Positions 22,602-39,732 of a stretch of DNA of 64,000 nt are shown in pieces. Below the pieces are notes generated by a model, which was given only the letters and a program-made list of their open reading frames with translations, did not search any database and was not told where the DNA came from. The stretch comes from Nitrospirota bacterium. Lineage in GTDB: Bacteria; Nitrospirota; Thermodesulfovibrionia; Thermodesulfovibrionales; Dissulfurispiraceae. The stretch spans positions 61,174-125,173 of the forward strand of contig JBFLWF010000004.1 of assembly GCA_040758355.1 (NCBI GenBank), given 5' to 3'. Each line of letters opens with the position of its first letter. Position 1 is the stretch's first letter. Both the position numbers and the translations under genes were made by a program.

Positions 22602-23519
22602 ATGTATCTTTATTTGCCGGTGGCTTTGACGAGTATTAACATCTTAATCCCTGTATGTCTCGGCCTTGCTGTAGGCCTGCTTTCAGGACTCTTCGGGGTC
22701 GGAGGCGGTTTTTTGATGACGCCTCTTTTAATAATGTTCGGCATACCTTCAACGGTTGCTGCAGCAACAGACTCAAACCAGATAGTGGCAGCATCCACTT
22801 CAGGTACATATGCACACTGGAAAGTGGGCAATGTGGATTTTAAGATGGGTTTTCATCTGCTTATAGGAGGATTTATCGGAGGCCTCTTAGGAGTTCAGGC
22901 TATAAAAATCTTAAGGGCAATGGGAAATGCGGACTTTGTGATAAAGATGACATATGTATTGATGCTTGGCATTGTCGGCACATACATGTTTATCGAGAGT
23001 TTACAGAGCTTAAAGAAAAAGAAGGCAGAAGAAGAGGAGCCGAAAAGGGAGTCTGGTGTTACCAGATTTCTTAAGTCATTGCCGCTTCAGACGCACTACG
23101 AGAAATCGGGCGTTACCCATTCAGCAATTGTTCCCATTGTCTTTGGAGGCTTTGTTGGAGTCCTTGCAGCAGTTATGGGTGTGGGAGGAGGCTTCTTAAT
23201 GGTTCCTGTAATGGTTTATATCCTCAGAATGCCTATGCATGTTGTTGTGGGCACAAGTCTTTTTCAGATACTGTTTAACTGCATAGAGGTTACGTTCCTT
23301 CAGGCATACACCAATCACAATGTGGATTTTATCCTTGCAGTGCTGCTGCTTTTGGGATCAACAATAGGGGCTCAGGTCGGAGCCGTGTTCGGAAGGAAAC
23401 TAAAGGGCGAACAGTTGAAGATAATTCTTGCAGTGATAGTGCTTGTGGTAACAGTAAAGATAATCTTTGAGATCACATTAACCCCGTCATTATTGCTTGG
23501 ACAGGCAGGAGGACACTAA
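22602..23519 (+). CDS. TauE/SafE (TSUP) family transporter
   Basis: GLFGVGGGFLMTP and MGVGGGFLMVP repeats. Confidence 0.93.
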   Translation: MYLYLPVALTSINILIPVCLGLAVGLLSGLFGVGGGFLMTPLLIMFGIPSTVAAATDSNQIVAASTSGTYAHWKVGNVDFKMGFHLLIGGFIGGLLGVQAIKILRAMGNADFVIKMTYVLMLGIVGTYMFIESLQSLKKKKAEEEEPKRESGVTRFLKSLPLQTHYEKSGVTHSAIVPIVFGGFVGVLAAVMGVGGGFLMVPVMVYILRMPMHVVVGTSLFQILFNCIEVTFLQAYTNHNVDFILAVLLLLGSTIGAQVGAVFGRKLKGEQLKIILAVIVLVVTVKIIFEITLTPSLLLGQAGGH

Positions 23520-24301
23520 TGAATTTTAAATTTCAGATTTCAAATTTCAGATTTTTAATTTTAATTATTTTTTTGTTTTTTGCAGATAAGGCGTCTGCAG
23601 AGCTTACTGCAACTGCAAATCATGACTACATAAAGATAAACTTTTTTTATCATGGAAGCACAGTAAGCGTAAAAGGCATATCGGACCCCGGAGCCGACCT
23701 TGTTATAAAAATAACCTCTCCTGAAGGCCATCAGGCATTGCGCAAAAAGGGAAAGGTGGCAGGTCTCCTCTGGATGAATGTGGGAGAATTGAAATTAGAA
23801 CATGCGCCTAATCTCTATTTTCTGTACAGCACAAAGAACATTGATGATATTTTAAGTCCCGAAGAGAGGGATAAGCATATGCTCGGATACGCTTCCCTAA
23901 ACAGGCATATAGAAATTTCGCCAGTCCAGAGCGAGGAAGAGAAAAACAGATGGTTTAACGAATTTGTGAAATTCAAGGAAAGTTCTAAGCTTTACGGTCT
24001 GTCAACCGGGAAGATATTACTAACAGAAAAGGACGGCAAACAGAATTACTATATCCTGACAGAATGGCCGTACCAGGCGGCTCATGGTAATTATACGGTC
24101 ACCGTCTATGCCGTCAAAGATAAGAGGGTTGTGGAAAAGGCAGAGGCCAATGTGATGGTGGAACAGGTGGGTACGGTAAAGACCCTTGCCAATATGGCCA
24201 AGAACAACGGGGCATTGTACGGCATCATATCTATAGTTGCAGCACTGGGAGCAGGCTTCGGAGTGGGCATGATATTCAGAAAGGGCGGAGGAGCACACTA
24301 A
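23519..24301 (+). CDS. TIGR02186-like exported protein with C-terminal TM (usual TauE partner)
   Basis: Signal peptide, FFYHG, RKKGKVAGLLWMN, C-terminal TM helix. Confidence 0.8.
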   Translation: MNFKFQISNFRFLILIIFLFFADKASAELTATANHDYIKINFFYHGSTVSVKGISDPGADLVIKITSPEGHQALRKKGKVAGLLWMNVGELKLEHAPNLYFLYSTKNIDDILSPEERDKHMLGYASLNRHIEISPVQSEEEKNRWFNEFVKFKESSKLYGLSTGKILLTEKDGKQNYYILTEWPYQAAHGNYTVTVYAVKDKRVVEKAEANVMVEQVGTVKTLANMAKNNGALYGIISIVAALGAGFGVGMIFRKGGGAH

Positions 24302-25158
24302 TGTATAAAAACATATTAGTAGCTTTTGATGGCTCGGAAGTCAGCAGGGCAGCGCTCATAGAATCCTCAAACTGGATAAAGCGGCATGGCGGTAAAGTCA
24401 TCATGGTTCATGCGGTCTATTTTGACGAAGAGGAGTTTAGCCTTGCACCAGAACAGAGGGAAGAGCGTTTTGAACTTGGTAAAAAGGTGTGCTATCAGAC
24501 GAGGGAGACAATCTCATCCGAGTTCGGTATAGAAGTGGAATCCCTCGTATGCGAGGGTGAACCACCTGATGTGATAACTGATATTGCGGCGGGGAAAAAG
24601 GCGGATCTTATCGCTATGGGAACCTATGGCAGAAAGGGATTGAAAAGACTGGTCATGGGGAGTGTGACATCGAAGGTGATCATAAATGCACCCTGCGATG
24701 TCATGGTCGTAAAGAGGCCCTGCAGTGAATGCACAGGTGAGTATGAATCAATCCTTGTACCCTTTGATGGCTCTCAATTCAGCAAAAAGGCCCTTGAGCA
24801 TGCCTGCGAGCTGTCAAGAAAGGATAATGCAGAGATAACCGTTCTGTACGTAATTCCGCGTTATGAGGAAATGGTAGGGTTTTTCAGGACAGAATCCATA
24901 AAGCAAAATCTTTATCAGGAGGCCCAGAAAATCATGGATGAAGCGAAAAAGATTGCCGTTTCCAATGGTGTATCCATAAGTACGACAATTCAGGAAGGGC
25001 AGGCAGCAGAAAAGATTATAGAAACTGCCAATGCTTTAAAGAATGATTTGATGATCATGGGAAGTTACGGGTGGAGGGGGATCAATAAGGTGATTATCGG
25101 TAGTACAACCGAAAGGGTGATAATGAATGCCTCATGCCCAGTGCTGGTTGTGAAATAA
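24301..25158 (+). CDS. Universal stress protein, tandem USP domains
   Basis: Two ILVxFDGS...MGxYG...GS modules. Confidence 0.93.
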   Translation: MYKNILVAFDGSEVSRAALIESSNWIKRHGGKVIMVHAVYFDEEEFSLAPEQREERFELGKKVCYQTRETISSEFGIEVESLVCEGEPPDVITDIAAGKKADLIAMGTYGRKGLKRLVMGSVTSKVIINAPCDVMVVKRPCSECTGEYESILVPFDGSQFSKKALEHACELSRKDNAEITVLYVIPRYEEMVGFFRTESIKQNLYQEAQKIMDEAKKIAVSNGVSISTTIQEGQAAEKIIETANALKNDLMIMGSYGWRGINKVIIGSTTERVIMNASCPVLVVK

Positions 25159-25207
25159 ACAACGAAATGGAGTATTGGAGTAATGGAGTATTGAGAGGTG
25201 ATAGAAG

Positions 25208-25627
25208 ATGAAAGGATATAGAAAGATTTTAATAGCAGTGAATGGCTCAAAGGATGTTCTTAAAGAAGGATTGCAGCTTGCACATGATGAAAAATGCTGG
25301 GTTACTGTTGTGAAGGTTATCCCTCCCTATGATGGAGACCTGAATCTTGTGGGCATTAAGAATATCGAGAATGTGCTGGACGGCGATGGAGCGAAGGCCA
25401 TCTCCGAGATGAAGGATATTGCAAAAAAAGAGGGTGCATTGATAAAGACGAGGCTCGAAAAAGGCGAGATCGATAAAAAGATCGTAGAGGTCGCTGAAGA
25501 CGAGAGATGCGATCTAATCATAATGGGAGCAGACAAGAAGAGCTGGATTAAAAAGATTTTAGGCAATAATGTTGTGGAAAAGGTCATCAATCAGGCCCCC
25601 TGCCCTGTACTGGTGGTAGAGGCATAA
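25208..25627 (+). CDS. Universal stress protein, single domain
   Basis: ILIAVNGS...DLIIMG...APCPVLVV. Confidence 0.9.
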   Translation: MKGYRKILIAVNGSKDVLKEGLQLAHDEKCWVTVVKVIPPYDGDLNLVGIKNIENVLDGDGAKAISEMKDIAKKEGALIKTRLEKGEIDKKIVEVAEDERCDLIIMGADKKSWIKKILGNNVVEKVINQAPCPVLVVEA

Positions 25628-28376: not shown

Positions 28377-28679
28377 ATGACACTTGGCATACTTGTTACT
28401 ACCGACAAATACAGGGATGATGTTGTGGGCATCACAGAGGCAGCAGTTGGCAGGGGACATCGGGTTGTTCTCTTTTTCATGGATGAAGGCTGCCGGTTGA
28501 TAACAGACAGCAGAATTGTTTCCCTCAAAGACAGAGACGGCGTTTCCATGAGTCTCTGTGACTTTAACCGGAAGAAGATGGGGATTTCTGATGAAGAAGT
28601 TCCAGAGGGGATTATCTGCGGAAGCCAGTATGACAATGCGGTTATGAACAGGGAATCGGATAAAGTGATAGTTCTTTAG
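28377..28679 (+). CDS. DsrE/TusD-like sulfur relay protein
   Basis: GHRVVLFFMDEG, conserved-position Cys in SLCD, GSQ...SDKVIVL terminus. Confidence 0.8.
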   Translation: MTLGILVTTDKYRDDVVGITEAAVGRGHRVVLFFMDEGCRLITDSRIVSLKDRDGVSMSLCDFNRKKMGISDEEVPEGIICGSQYDNAVMNRESDKVIVL

Positions 28680-28750
28680 CTGATAGCTGATAGCTGATAG
28701 CTCATAGCTGAAAATAAATAACTATGAGCTATGAGCCATGAGCCATGAGC
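28677..28750. repeat. Inverted heptamer arrays (TAGCTGA)n / (YATGAGC)n
   Basis: Visible tandem 7-mers; arms partly complementary (GCTCATAG / CTATGAGC). Confidence 0.85.
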
Positions 28751-29016
28751 AAAAGAAAATAGCGGTAATTGTGAGGGAAAGACAGTCCGAGGCTTTGCGC
28801 ATGGGCATAGGACTTTCAGTGCTAAATGATGTGGATATATACATATTTGACAGAAAACTTGAAGCATCCGATGATATTTCATTAAACCTCGAAATGATCA
28901 AAGAAATGAGATTGTGCCTCTATACAAATACTGCTTTAAATGAAGGTATAGAGTATATTCCAACAGAAGATATTGCGAAAAGACTTCTAAAATATGATAA
29001 TATTTTGCCGTATTAA
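28738..29016 (+). CDS. DsrF/TusC-like small protein
   Basis: KKIAVIV...SEALRMGIGL...YDNILPY, DsrEFH-fold pattern; operonic with the DsrE-like gene. Confidence 0.6.
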   Translation: MSHEQKKIAVIVRERQSEALRMGIGLSVLNDVDIYIFDRKLEASDDISLNLEMIKEMRLCLYTNTALNEGIEYIPTEDIAKRLLKYDNILPY

Positions 29017-29018
29017 TA

Positions 29019-29186
29019 ATGAAAATACTTCATATATTAAAGACAGAACCCGAAGACAGCGTTAAGAAGATAATCGAAGAACATAGAAAAGGCAATGATG
29101 TGGAAGTCCTTAGCATGAATGAAAATAAAAATTACGACCTGATTGTAGAGTTTATAGAGAAGGCAGACAAGGTCATGGTCTGGTAA
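29019..29186 (+). CDS. DsrH/TusB-like miniprotein (55 aa, absent from the ORF track)
   Basis: MKILHILK...NYDLIVEFIEKADKVMVW*; starts 2 nt after the upstream stop. Confidence 0.75.
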   Translation: MKILHILKTEPEDSVKKIIEEHRKGNDVEVLSMNENKNYDLIVEFIEKADKVMVW

Positions 29187-29228
29187 AACAAGCCTTTGGC
29201 TTGTCAATAAACAATACAGGAGGTTTAA

Positions 29229-30326
29229 ATGGAGGGGATACCACAGGCAAGCATTATGGTCTTGCTCAGCGGTGTGCTGGTAGGCGTTTTGCTCGGTTTT
29301 GTGCTTCAACGCGGCAGGTATTGAATGAACTCAGCGTTCAGAGACGTGATCTTTGTAAACGATATAACATTGCTGAGGGCATGGCTTCTGGCATTGGTAA
29401 TTTCTATTATCGGTGCTAACTTTATTGAGGACATTGGACTTATGGGTGCTGACGGCTTAAGGCGTCAGGCATTTGCCCCTGTTGCAGCCATTGTTGGCGG
29501 CTATATCTTCGGTCTCGGAATAGTGAGGGCAGGCGGATGCGGCAGCGGCGTTCTGTACAAACAGGGTGAAGGGCAATTTGCTGCATTTGTTGCTGCACTC
29601 GGTTTTGGTGCAGGGCTTATAGCGACAATGCATGGCCCGCTTAAGCCTGTAATGAAGTTTTTGAAAAGCTATAAGATGTCTGTAGGTACGGATGCGGATG
29701 GCGAACCAATAATGAGCCCTGCATTATGGGATATATTTGGAGGCGGAAATATCAAGTGGATAGTTATTGCTGTGATTGCAGCGATAATAATTCCCATTGT
29801 GCTTAAGGGCAGGCCGTTTGCAAAAGGACCCAAGAAGGGATGGTCATGGTCATTGGGTGGGTTTATACTCGGATTTGTCGTCATCTTTGCCTGGTGGACA
29901 TCTTACTATTGGGGTGGGCAGGCAAGGGGACTTTCATTCTCCGGCCCGACATCTGATTTCTTTTTATTTACTCTTATTGGAAACAGTCAGGCGCCCTTTG
30001 ACCCGATGTTCAATATCTTCGGCATAGGCATAGCTACATGGAGCGCACTGTATGTTATAGGTGTTCCGATAGGTGCATACATTAGCTCAAGAGGTCTCGG
30101 TGAATTTAAATTAACTGCTCCAAAGGACCCGAGCGAACTGGTGAGGGTATTTACTGGAGGTATTATCATGGGATTCGGCGGCGCAGTTGCGGGTGGCTGA
30201 ACTGTGGGTCATTCCTTGACAGGTATGTCAAGTCTGGCTTTACAGAGCATAGTCGCTACGGTGTTTATAATCCTCGGCAACTGGACAATGACTTACTTCA
30301 TGTTCATAAAGCCGATGAAGGATTAG
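29229..30326 (+). CDS. YeeE/YedE (TsuA-like) sulfur-compound transporter, predicted selenoprotein with two Sec (U32, U324), 365 aa
   Basis: GGAGG SD + ATG 29229. One frame through TGA 29322-29324 (LQRGRY-U-MNSAFRD) and TGA 30198-30200 (AVAGG-U-TVGHSLTG) to TAG 30324-30326. Both TGAs are at family Cys motifs and are followed by hairpins. Confidence 0.88.
29335..29361 (+). promoter_or_regulatory. Candidate bacterial SECIS for U32
   Basis: CGTT-CAGAGA-[CGTGA]-TCTTTG-TA-AACG; apical loop starts 21 nt after UGA and has G at position 2. Confidence 0.6.
30206..30240 (+). promoter_or_regulatory. Candidate bacterial SECIS for U324
   Basis: Perfect stem CTTGACA-[GGTA]-TGTCAAG (30215-30232) on a lower GGGTCA/TGGCTT stem; loop starts 22 nt after UGA. 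Confidence 0.8.
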
Positions 30327-30482: not shown

Positions 30483-30707
30483 ATGAAGAAGGTTTTAGCC
30501 CTGATCGTAGCACTGCTCTTCGTATTCGCTGTCTCAACAGTAGCTTTCGCTGCAGAGAAGGCAGACGCCCCTAAGGCTGAGAAGGCAGACAAGAAGGCAG
30601 ACAAGAAGGCAGACAAGAAGGATAAGAAGGACGAGAAGAAAGACGAGAAGAAGGAAGATAAGAAGGACGCAGCACCAAAGAAGAAGAAAGCAATCGAGGG
30701 CTGCTAA
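30483..30707 (+). CDS. Small secreted Lys/Asp/Glu-rich protein ending in IEGC
   Basis: AGGAGGTG SD, signal peptide (AFA-A), ADKK/DEKK repeats, single terminal Cys; own promoter and terminator. Confidence 0.85.
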   Translation: MKKVLALIVALLFVFAVSTVAFAAEKADAPKAEKADKKADKKADKKDKKDEKKDEKKEDKKDAAPKKKKAIEGC

Positions 30708-30722
30708 TTCAGTTAACAATAA

Positions 30723-30757
30723 AGGGTGGAAGCTGAATGCTTCCACCCTATTTTTTT
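30723..30757 (+). terminator. Rho-independent terminator
   Basis: AGGGTGGAAGC-TGAAT-GCTTCCACCCT followed by A and T7. Confidence 0.9.
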
Positions 30758-38445: not shown

Positions 38446-39732
38446 ATGAGATTTCTTAAGTTGATTCTGGTTTTGCTTTTCATTGCTGTGCCGCTCGTAG
38501 CGTTTTCAGCAGAAAAGGCAAAGACCATCGACGAACTCGCAAAGATGTACGATGTTTCTTCATGCAAGCAGTGCCATCCAAAGGTTTTTGAAGAATGGGA
38601 GAAGTCCTACCATGCAATATCGCTTGTTGGCTCACCCCGTACCATGGCTACCATAGCAGGTACTGTAAAAGACGGCCTAATGAAGGAATATACAAAGGCC
38701 GGGATTAAGGACATAAAAGATATAAAAGTAGAGCATATGATGATCTGCGCTAAGTGTCATCTCCCGCAATTGAAAGACGCAACAGATGCAGTTGCTCAGG
38801 AAATTGCAAAGGCTGCAATCGACGGTGCTGCTGGCGATGAGGCTGCACAGGCAAAGCTCAAAAAGATTGGGATCAACTGCCTTATCTGCCATAACCAAAA
38901 GGCACTTATCCACAAGTGGACTGACGGCGAGCCAGAAGCCGGTGTTATTTACGGCAACAAAGAAGGCGCCCATGGCGATGCAAAGTTCAAGGCACTAAAA
39001 AAGAGCCCGATAATGAAGGAGTCAATCCTCTGCGGCCAGTGCCACGGTCTTGGCCCGAACTTTGATTTGACAGAACCAACGCAGTGCGCAACTCTTTATG
39101 GAAGCTATCTGCATTCATATGTGCCTTCGGGAGGCTCAAAGACATGTCAGGAATGTCATATGGACAAGGGGCACTATATGCCTGCTTACAGGGATCCTGA
39201 TCAGGCAAAGAAGGCTGTGAGCGTGGATGTAGATGCAATGGGTTATTACTTCCTGCCAAAGGCCGGGGATTCCATTCCAACTGCAAAGGTTACCGTAAAA
39301 ATGGTAAGCAAGGCAGGTCACAGAATCCCTGATGGCTGACCATCCCCTAACAGGCTGGTCCTGGATGTGACCGCTAAGACAAAGGATGGAAAAGAGATAT
39401 TCAATGCATCAAAGATTTATACACCGCAGTCTCCTGCAAAAGGCAGAGGAGACAAGGTGGTTTATGGTCCTCACAGGAAGTCAGGCATGCTTGCTGACAC
39501 AACCCTTCAGCCCGGCAAACCAGTAAAAGAGACCTTCGAGATTAAATTCCCTTACGAAGATGTAGAAAAAGAAGGCAAGAAAGTAAGGGATGTTAAGGCA
39601 AAGGAGATTGATGTAACAGTCAAGCTCTGGCATTTGCCTGCCGGCGGCAACCACAGGGATGATAAGGCTACCCCTGTGAATAAGGCCAAGTACCTATTCT
39701 TTGAAACAACAAAGACAGTTACAGTAAAATAA
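38446..39732 (+). CDS. extKL: Pentaheme c-type selenocytochrome, ExtKL-like, copy 1 (U298, 428 aa)
   Basis: Signal peptide and 5 CxxCH. TGA 39337-39339 in GHRIPDG-U-PSPNRLVLDV reads in frame into ORF 39367-39732. Hairpin CATC..CAGG-[CTGGT]-CCTG-GATG follows the TGA. Confidence 0.88.

Follow-up and report, generated by a model that had tools for sequence, protein, structure and literature searches.

A YeeE/TsuA-like transporter gene of Nitrospirota with two in-frame TGA codons predicted to encode selenocysteine

The segment 29229-30326 of the window (the whole 64,000-nucleotide stretch of Nitrospirota DNA that was analyzed) very likely codes for a membrane selenoprotein of the YeeE/YedE family with two recoded positions: selenocysteine (Sec) is predicted at the outer and inner pore sites, and Cys is retained between them (U32-C104-U324; U-C-U). 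The recoding of both UGA codons as Sec is predicted with high confidence from sequence comparison, and the substrate and purpose that we infer for the protein are held with moderate confidence.

Reading frame and protein family

The gene and its key codons are arranged as follows.

29229..30326, + strand: yeeE/tsuA-like gene, 365 aa with both TGAs read through (U32-C104-U324), assigned by PF04143, alignment and AF2 model
29218..29223, + strand: Shine-Dalgarno sequence AGGAGG, 5 nt ahead of the ATG at 29229
29322..29324, + strand: TGA codon 32, predicted Sec, after LQRGRY; equivalent to StYeeE C22 at the cytoplasmic pore end
29538..29540, + strand: TGC codon 104, middle relay Cys; equivalent to StYeeE C91, Cys in 103/103 homologues
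30198..30200, + strand: TGA codon 324, predicted Sec, after AVAGG; equivalent to StYeeE C293, the outer thiosulfate-contacting Cys

The original prediction placed an open reading frame of 291 aa between two in-frame TGA codons, with a Shine-Dalgarno sequence and ATG upstream and a 41-aa continuation downstream, and the coordinates agree with this description. The frame between the TGAs spans 29325-30200, is preceded by 31 codons and followed by 41, and closes with TAG at 30324-30326. The first and third sites of the 365-aa protein are found in the motifs RYUMN and GGUTVG, respectively.

The read-through translation covers the PF04143 (YeeE/YedE) profile end to end (profile positions 1-310 of 310, E 1.7e-70, 238.5 bits versus a gathering score of 27), which answers the proposal that it be aligned to this family. 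In the alignment to S. thermophila YeeE (StYeeE; 6LEO, E 5e-48), U32, C104 and U324 are located opposite C22, C91 and C293, as expected from the predicted placement on the YeeE relay. The term relay describes only the geometry of the three residues. An AlphaFold (AF2) model, built from a 69-sequence alignment with Cys in place of Sec, has a pLDDT of 92 and superposes on 6LEO/8K1R at a TM score of 0.83 with 34% identity (Foldseek); a single-sequence fold (pLDDT 43) was useless, and the alignment-based fold was used instead. Among the NCBIfam models, the protein scores below the cut-offs of the TsuA equivalogs (NF052577, 252.5/400; NF041049, 149.2/645) and of the selenium YedE/FdhT models (TIGR04112, 41/200; NF033796, 83/350).

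According to the available portions of the structural reports, the StYeeE residue that touches thiosulfate in the outer cavity is C293; C91 occupies the centre, and C22 lies on the cytoplasmic side beside a cysteine of YeeD, with a C22-C91 disulfide in approximately half of the purified protein (PMC7449682, PMC11073785). The same portions record that the StYeeE C22A mutant complements and the C293A mutant does not, and that C22 of E. coli YeeE is not replaceable by Ser. The U-C-U protein shares the full-length fold and the three relay positions with S. thermophila YeeE/TsuA (6LEO/6LEP/8J4C/8K1R; PMC7449682, PMC11073785) and retains equivalents of StYeeE R28, E101 and E261. However, StYeeE K67 and R215 are replaced with Q80 and Q231, with an Arg 1-2 residues off, and the R98 position is Lys in 33/33 U-C-U genes. 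StYeeE contains Cys at C22 and C293, whereas Sec is predicted at both positions of the U-C-U protein, and the U-C-U gene has no adjoining yeeD or tusA, unlike that of S. thermophila.

Homologues and the all-Cys paralogue

A full-length gene with two TGAs is present in 21 of the 61 genomes searched (host included). The 103 distinct homologous genes comprise 33 U-C-U, 17 C-C-U, 51 C-C-C and 2 partial genes; no other internal stop occurs in any of them, and the middle site is invariably Cys. Wherever a homologue covers them, the two TGA columns hold Cys or TGA and never Trp, which is the Cys/TGA pairing that had been anticipated, with the exception of a distant subfamily that carries Asp at site 3. 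A metagenome scan for the site-1 TGA yielded 37 loci, of which 10 end early and the other 27, covering both sites, are all U-C-U (27/27); 23 of these 27 are unmatched in the earlier homologue set. The segments that annotation drops are under purifying selection, with pN/pS values of 0.21 for the first 31 codons and 0.09 for the last 41. Truncation by standard annotation was correctly foreseen: 58 of the best 120 protein-database matches run from M33 to G323, and the RefSeq protein of cultured Dissulfurispira thermophila (289 aa) equals the frame between the two TGAs of its locus (L180). The named relatives are Nitrospirota, mostly Thermodesulfovibrionales/Dissulfurispiraceae. One U-C-U gene (L134) with Nitrospirota-like neighbours lies on a contig titled Chloroflexota, which may reflect mis-binning or transfer.

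Quick maximum-likelihood (ML) trees place 36 genes (33 U-C-U, 2 C-C-U and 1 C-C-C) in one group, with 19 all-Cys genes as its sister group. The support for the 36-gene group is 96 in the larger tree, which omits the 2 partial genes, and 80 in the smaller tree, which contains 47 of the 101 rows and 4 database proteins and whose outgroup does not form one side of a branch; no order of gains is claimed from either. The C-C-U genes are scattered over several outer branches.

A TGA-free gene of 62-70% identity accompanies the U-C-U gene in nine of the 21 genomes (partial in one). Upstream of 11 of the 17 sister genes with enough flank, a selC*-type tRNA is observed, compared with 0/32 U-C-U, 0/17 C-C-U and 0/31 other C-C-C genes. 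This RNA is tRNA-Sec-like, with a GCA anticodon, an unusually long variable arm and a length of about 125-130 nt, and is missed by ARAGORN (e.g. L124:4855-4980); in the host and sister loci a selenium LysR gene and a palindromic box lie upstream of it. By sequence, the GCA tRNA fits the selC* tRNA-Cys of Thermodesulfovibrio/Nitrospirae as presented in the available part of PMC5389517. The LysR gene and a YedF gene each flank five selC* sister loci, and at L124 both neighbours exceed their cut-offs (selenium LysR NF040786, YedF TIGR03527). The palindromic box precedes 6/17 sister genes and no U-C-U gene, and a genome-wide search for the LysR-like box returned a single clear match, on contig C71 of the host. 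On that contig, the LysR_Se gene and selC* (C71:192-315, − strand; L162) are followed at the contig end by a transposase-like fragment, which we take to be ISL3, and YedF is found near the start of contig C30. An all-Cys yeeE was not found in the host assembly and is either lost or unassembled.

Because the Cys copy is often located behind a selC* tRNA-Cys, at some loci together with LysR or YedF, the gene context suggests that the all-Cys paralogue is a selenium-starvation backup for the U-C-U form. Three sister-clade genes occupy the kup...small protein-trmJ locus that U-C-U genes hold elsewhere, and the two forms therefore seem to be interchangeable. Seventeen columns that are nearly fixed in the U-C-U clade differ in the Cys paralogue, so that the latter may have diverged to some extent and may be no simple backup. 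The pairing of a Sec form with a Cys paralogue is common to the Methanococcus isoform pairs under HrsM (LysR_Se) (PMC11097638, PMC5322559). The sister paralogue locus combines a LysR_Se-family gene in some loci (one above cut-off) with a selC*-type tRNA (PMC5389517). The Methanococcus pairs are soluble redox enzymes, whereas the U-C-U/Cys pair would be a bacterial membrane transporter, with its regulation deduced from gene context.

The two paralogues could instead have separate roles, the all-Cys copy beside selC*, LysR_Se and YedF importing selenium and the U-C-U protein transporting sulfur, or the U-C-U protein could itself handle selenium species. This division would accord with the proposal of YedE, YedF and LysR_Se as selenium-homeostasis genes, with the up-regulation of yedE in selenium-starved Methanococcus and with the 17 clade-specific residues that separate the paralogues. 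It is nonetheless unlikely: both copies score far below the selenium-YedE cut-off (TIGR04112, 41 and 48 versus 200), deletion of yedE in Methanococcus gave no clear selenium-transport phenotype, three Cys copies reside in the U-C-U locus, and an importer of selenium that itself depended on Sec would break down just when it was required. The reading of the Cys copy as a stand-in for a sulfur transporter is preferred.

Within the U-C-U group, Cys is restored at site 1 in two genes (L133 and L107) and at both sites in one (L092). Reversion at site 3 is probably represented by the P0021 cluster (P0021 and P0122-P0127), seven 331-aa proteins that start at M33 and contain Cys324, consistent with a U-C-C form. 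Since reversions are nested in the U-C-U group, either Sec can apparently revert to Cys and neither appears to be indispensable. In a distant U-C-D subfamily (L207-L209 in G253, G105 and G121; 28% identity, three genomes from a single genus), the first site is TGA and the third is Asp; Sec appears to be used there independently at the inner site. The rule that U32 never occurs without U324 was considered and is probably false, given the P0021 cluster and the U-C-D genes L207-209.

Those same genes bear on an improbable reading in which both UGAs encode Sec and U32 serves mainly as a translational checkpoint, so that low selenium leads to a stop after 31 residues rather than to a 323-residue dead protein ending at U324. 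The near-constant pairing of U32 with U324 in the subfamily (33/33 genes and 27/27 metagenome loci) is what such a checkpoint would produce, and the StYeeE mutants, as far as the available portions of the reports go, would also suit it (C22A still complements and C293A fails). Nevertheless, U32 is positioned precisely on a conserved Cys that E. coli YeeE, in the same portions, cannot exchange for Ser at C22; the distant subfamily pairs a site-1 TGA with Asp at the third site; and the seven-member cluster with start M33 and Cys324, known as proteins only, probably has the U-C-C arrangement. A functional Sec at the inner site is therefore favoured over the checkpoint.

Predicted recoding signals and decoding of the UGA codons

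A hairpin follows each TGA.

29335..29361, + strand: SECIS-like hairpin 1, stem 29339-44/29350-55 (6 bp, two G-U), loop CGUGA (DNA CGTGA) 21 nt after the TGA
30215..30232, + strand: SECIS-like hairpin 2, stem 30215-21/30226-32 (perfect 7 bp), loop GGUA (DNA GGTA) at nt 22

The hairpins were judged by the loop-position rule for SECIS elements. The original prediction of a hairpin after each TGA, with loops 21-22 nt downstream, stands in that both are present and conserved in TGA genes, but hairpin 1 by itself is thermodynamically ordinary (z 0.14, equalled by 474/2000 synonymous recodings). Hairpin 2 alone is modestly unusual (z -2.5, equalled by 40/2000), and 6352 of the 99415 genomic TGAs in six frames (~6%) satisfy the same loose hairpin test. 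The comparative data, rather than the single sequence, indicate that neither hairpin is due to chance. A stem of at least 6 bp is found at site 1 in 33/33 TGA genes versus 8/69 Cys genes and at site 3 in 43/50 versus 1/52, compared with 8/103 at the middle Cys. Five successive codons of hairpin 1 (AGA-GAC-GTG-ATC-TTT) are invariant in 33/33 U-C-U genes. Synonymous divergence (pS) drops to 0.17 in stem 1 and 0.30 in stem 2 versus 0.66-0.97 elsewhere in the same genes, with values of 0.90 and 0.72 at the equivalent hairpin codons of the Cys sister clade and 0.97 at matching offsets after C104. Stem exchanges (C-G/T-A and G-C/C-G) are observed among the homologues, which are kin and not independent, and the hairpin 1 stem is partly paired in Cys genes too. 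One gene that is apparently frameshifted after site 3 (L113) was left out of the codon and pair tallies. On this comparison, both hairpins are under RNA-level selection.

The Sec machinery, which had been named as a check, is complete: the host genome (G000, 99% complete) encodes tRNA-Sec (selC), selA, selB and selD, and its selD itself contains a TGA. TGA is used as the terminator in 380 of 1263 open frames of at least 300 codons, and the tRNA-Trp anticodon is CCA; recoding is thus site-specific, and the code is unchanged. The co-occurrence of selA is uninformative because selA is present in 58/60 relatives. Among the 40 metagenome contig matches listed, no TGA change was found at either site; as run X1 may be the source sample, this result is not used as support. 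The machinery and the TGA columns are in line with the original prediction, and nothing that it named as refuting was observed. Two contig pieces came from RNA run X20, one of which is a diverged 49-nt fragment of the yeeE-like gene, and they say nothing on expression. Metagenome runs with a share of <0.2 were excluded from habitat inference.

That a selC*-type suppressor reads the UGAs as Cys, or that they are read as Trp, is very improbable. In the available part of PMC5389517, selC* tRNAs with a UCA anticodon insert Cys at opal codons in some deltaproteobacteria, and a selC*-like gene exists in the host; yet every selC*-like match carries GCA and none UCA, the tRNA-Trp has the CCA anticodon, TGA is in regular use as a stop, and the TGA columns of homologues hold Cys and never Trp. 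It is hardly credible that the TGAs are true stops, whether through decay to a pseudogene, an error of sequencing or a gene split in two with a new start at the ATG directly behind TGA32. The same Met follows Cys in 18/18 sister Cys genes, both TGAs are kept across genes as low as 68% identity, both flanks outside the TGAs are under purifying selection, no start codon opens the final stretch of 41 codons, and a TGA-to-TGA product would lose two of the three relay residues. From the comparison, recoding of both UGAs as Sec is very likely.

A rough TGA scan of the host genome yields other likely selenoproteins. Their putative Sec codons (C3:41978, C13:52449, C29:11909, C17:47896, C22:6204 and C4:45594) occur in FdhA-, SelD-, DsbG-, peroxiredoxin- and TlpA-like motifs (all but SelD assigned by eye) and in an 'IPAUKAC' protein. 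Two neighbouring multi-domain proteins (C9:59395 and 60905, − strand) have a TGA after IFYC-x-G-x-T, each with a hairpin at +22. By eye we take them to be rhodanese-like, and they are candidate selenium-containing sulfur carriers.

Sulfur context, proposed function and relation to known proteins

The yeeE-like gene is flanked by small genes on the same strand.

28377..28679, + strand: DsrE-like small protein of 100 aa with a conserved Cys motif (weak PF02635 match, E 0.022)
28738..29016, + strand: conserved protein of 92 aa, possibly DsrF-like; its matches are Nitrospirota clusters without a name, plus a lead to a DsrE/F cluster at only 0.81
29019..29186, + strand: conserved protein of 55 aa, possibly DsrH-like; no family found
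30483..30707, + strand: small Lys-rich (Lys/Asp-rich) protein whose N-terminus resembles a signal peptide; most frequent neighbour downstream (29/33 U-C-U loci)
30723-30749: terminator-like hairpin

The first upstream protein is likely the DsrE of a type II DsrEFH set. PDB and Atlas searches named none of the three upstream proteins. DsrE-like neighbours occur near 12/33 U-C-U genes (some flanks are short). No family was found for the downstream protein, relatives of which often have a KKKxIEGC-like tail. No tusA lies beside yeeE; the host genome has 7 PF01206 matches, none on contig C4, and contains dsrA. A promoter scan was at chance level (6 versus 5.4). In three metagenome runs, the short intergenic segment 28677-28712 has a very high contig depth when summed, together with numerous loose ends, and looks like a dispersed small repeat.

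The arrangement of yeeE with three small genes, the first DsrE-like, in a dsrA-containing Nitrospirota genome resembles the YTD or yeeE-tusA-dsrEFH type II clusters of sulfate reducers, disproportionators and cable bacteria (PMC13293266, PMC12998232) and SoxT1 (PMC11582611), as far as the available portions of these papers describe them. According to the same portions of the YTD papers, the dsrEFH type II/YTD arrangement is common in Nitrospirota (PMC13293266, PMC12998232); the string 'selen' is absent from the main text of both. The YTD cluster includes tusA, whereas the U-C-U locus does not, and the DsrEFH identity of its small genes is weakly supported. Together, the DsrEFH-like upstream genes and dsrA point to dissimilatory sulfur metabolism.

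Eight kilobases from the yeeE gene, an ExtKL/MccSep-family multihaem cytochrome gene (38446-39732, + strand) is read through a TGA at 39337-39339 (NF040886 above cut-off; hairpin z -2.0). The ExtKL/MccSep family comprises known selenoproteins and includes a polysulfide reductase in Geobacter (PMC13510729). The region 22602-25627, 4-7 kb upstream of yeeE, holds a TauE/SafE sulfite-exporter-family gene (PF01925), a TIGR02186-like gene and two universal-stress-protein-like genes.

The U-C-U protein may be a YeeE/TsuA-like importer of reduced sulfur that uses Sec for capture and release and has a Cys twin as a stand-in, a proposal that we consider reasonably probable as a whole. SelB and tRNA-Sec would decode each UGA via its own SECIS element. 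The protein would import thiosulfate or short polysulfide/sulfane sulfur and feed cytoplasmic sulfur carriers: the substrate would encounter U324 in the outer cavity, be handed on by C104 and leave from U32 on the cytoplasmic side, which is where YeeD/TusA binds in the solved complex. The selenols, being more ionised and nucleophilic (pKa 5.2 versus 8.5 for Cys), would quicken capture and release without new chemistry; faster handling rather than new chemistry is proposed since the clade includes members with Cys restored at one or the other site. Under selenium starvation, the all-Cys sister paralogue would stand in. The middle residue may have been kept as Cys to avoid a U32-U104 diselenide, which is speculation. 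Even for the Cys protein, transport of intact anions by S-H-S hydrogen bonds versus covalent sulfur handling is debated in the available portions of PMC7449682 and PMC11582611. A more specific scheme can be offered only tentatively: a Sec/Cys isoform switch in which a Se-S-Se pore hands over sulfane sulfur covalently as selenenyl-sulfide for dissimilatory metabolism, the all-Cys twin and selC* tRNA-Cys are switched on by the selenium LysR, and the middle Cys avoids a dead-end diselenide.

The prediction of a doubly recoded membrane selenoprotein is supported by the sites, selection and machinery, but Sec at the third site has already been catalogued in half-size proteins. In the available portions of PMC13188914 and PMC9312934, one YeeE/YedE selenoprotein family is listed, with the motif GUxSG and one Sec (WP_012471001.1); it contains 5 proteins from 5 organisms (PMC5029168 supplement). 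The representative sequence (PMC12013277 supplement) is half-size, about 170 aa, and corresponds to the C-terminal half with Sec at the third site, and half-size homologues align their TGA to query residue 324. The catalogued form thus shares the Pfam family and the C293/U324 site with the U-C-U protein; it is half-size with one Sec, whereas the U-C-U form is full length with two and adds the cytoplasmic C22 site. By alignment, U324 is an already catalogued Sec site in a different architecture. Split half-size YeeE pairs (L217-L220 in G023, G027, G031 and G050), in which the third-site TGA of the C-terminal-type half equals the catalogued GUxSG form, share three genomes with U-C-U genes.

Bacterial proteins with two Sec residues are already known as such. 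A two-Sec or C22-site YeeE was not found in the literature and catalogues searched; the entries of Haft & Tolstoy 2025 and BSepDB lie outside that search and could hold one. The new element here is the sister relationship between the U-C-U clade and an all-Cys clade that is present in 9/21 U-C-U genomes and often lies behind a selC*-type tRNA-Cys.

Sec is costly, and its use twice in one membrane protein is rare unless nucleophilicity or redox chemistry matters. The natural C-C-C, C-C-U, U-C-U and probably U-C-C forms, at 60-85% identity, constitute a series for probing the YeeE mechanism, and the U-C-U gene is carried by a cultured strain, Dissulfurispira thermophila. In annotations of the Nitrospirota yeeE genes that serve as markers of sulfur disproportionation or oxidation, the first and last helices are missing, as are two of the three key residues. 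For the selC* tRNA in Nitrospirota, the neighbouring Cys twin suggests a concrete role.
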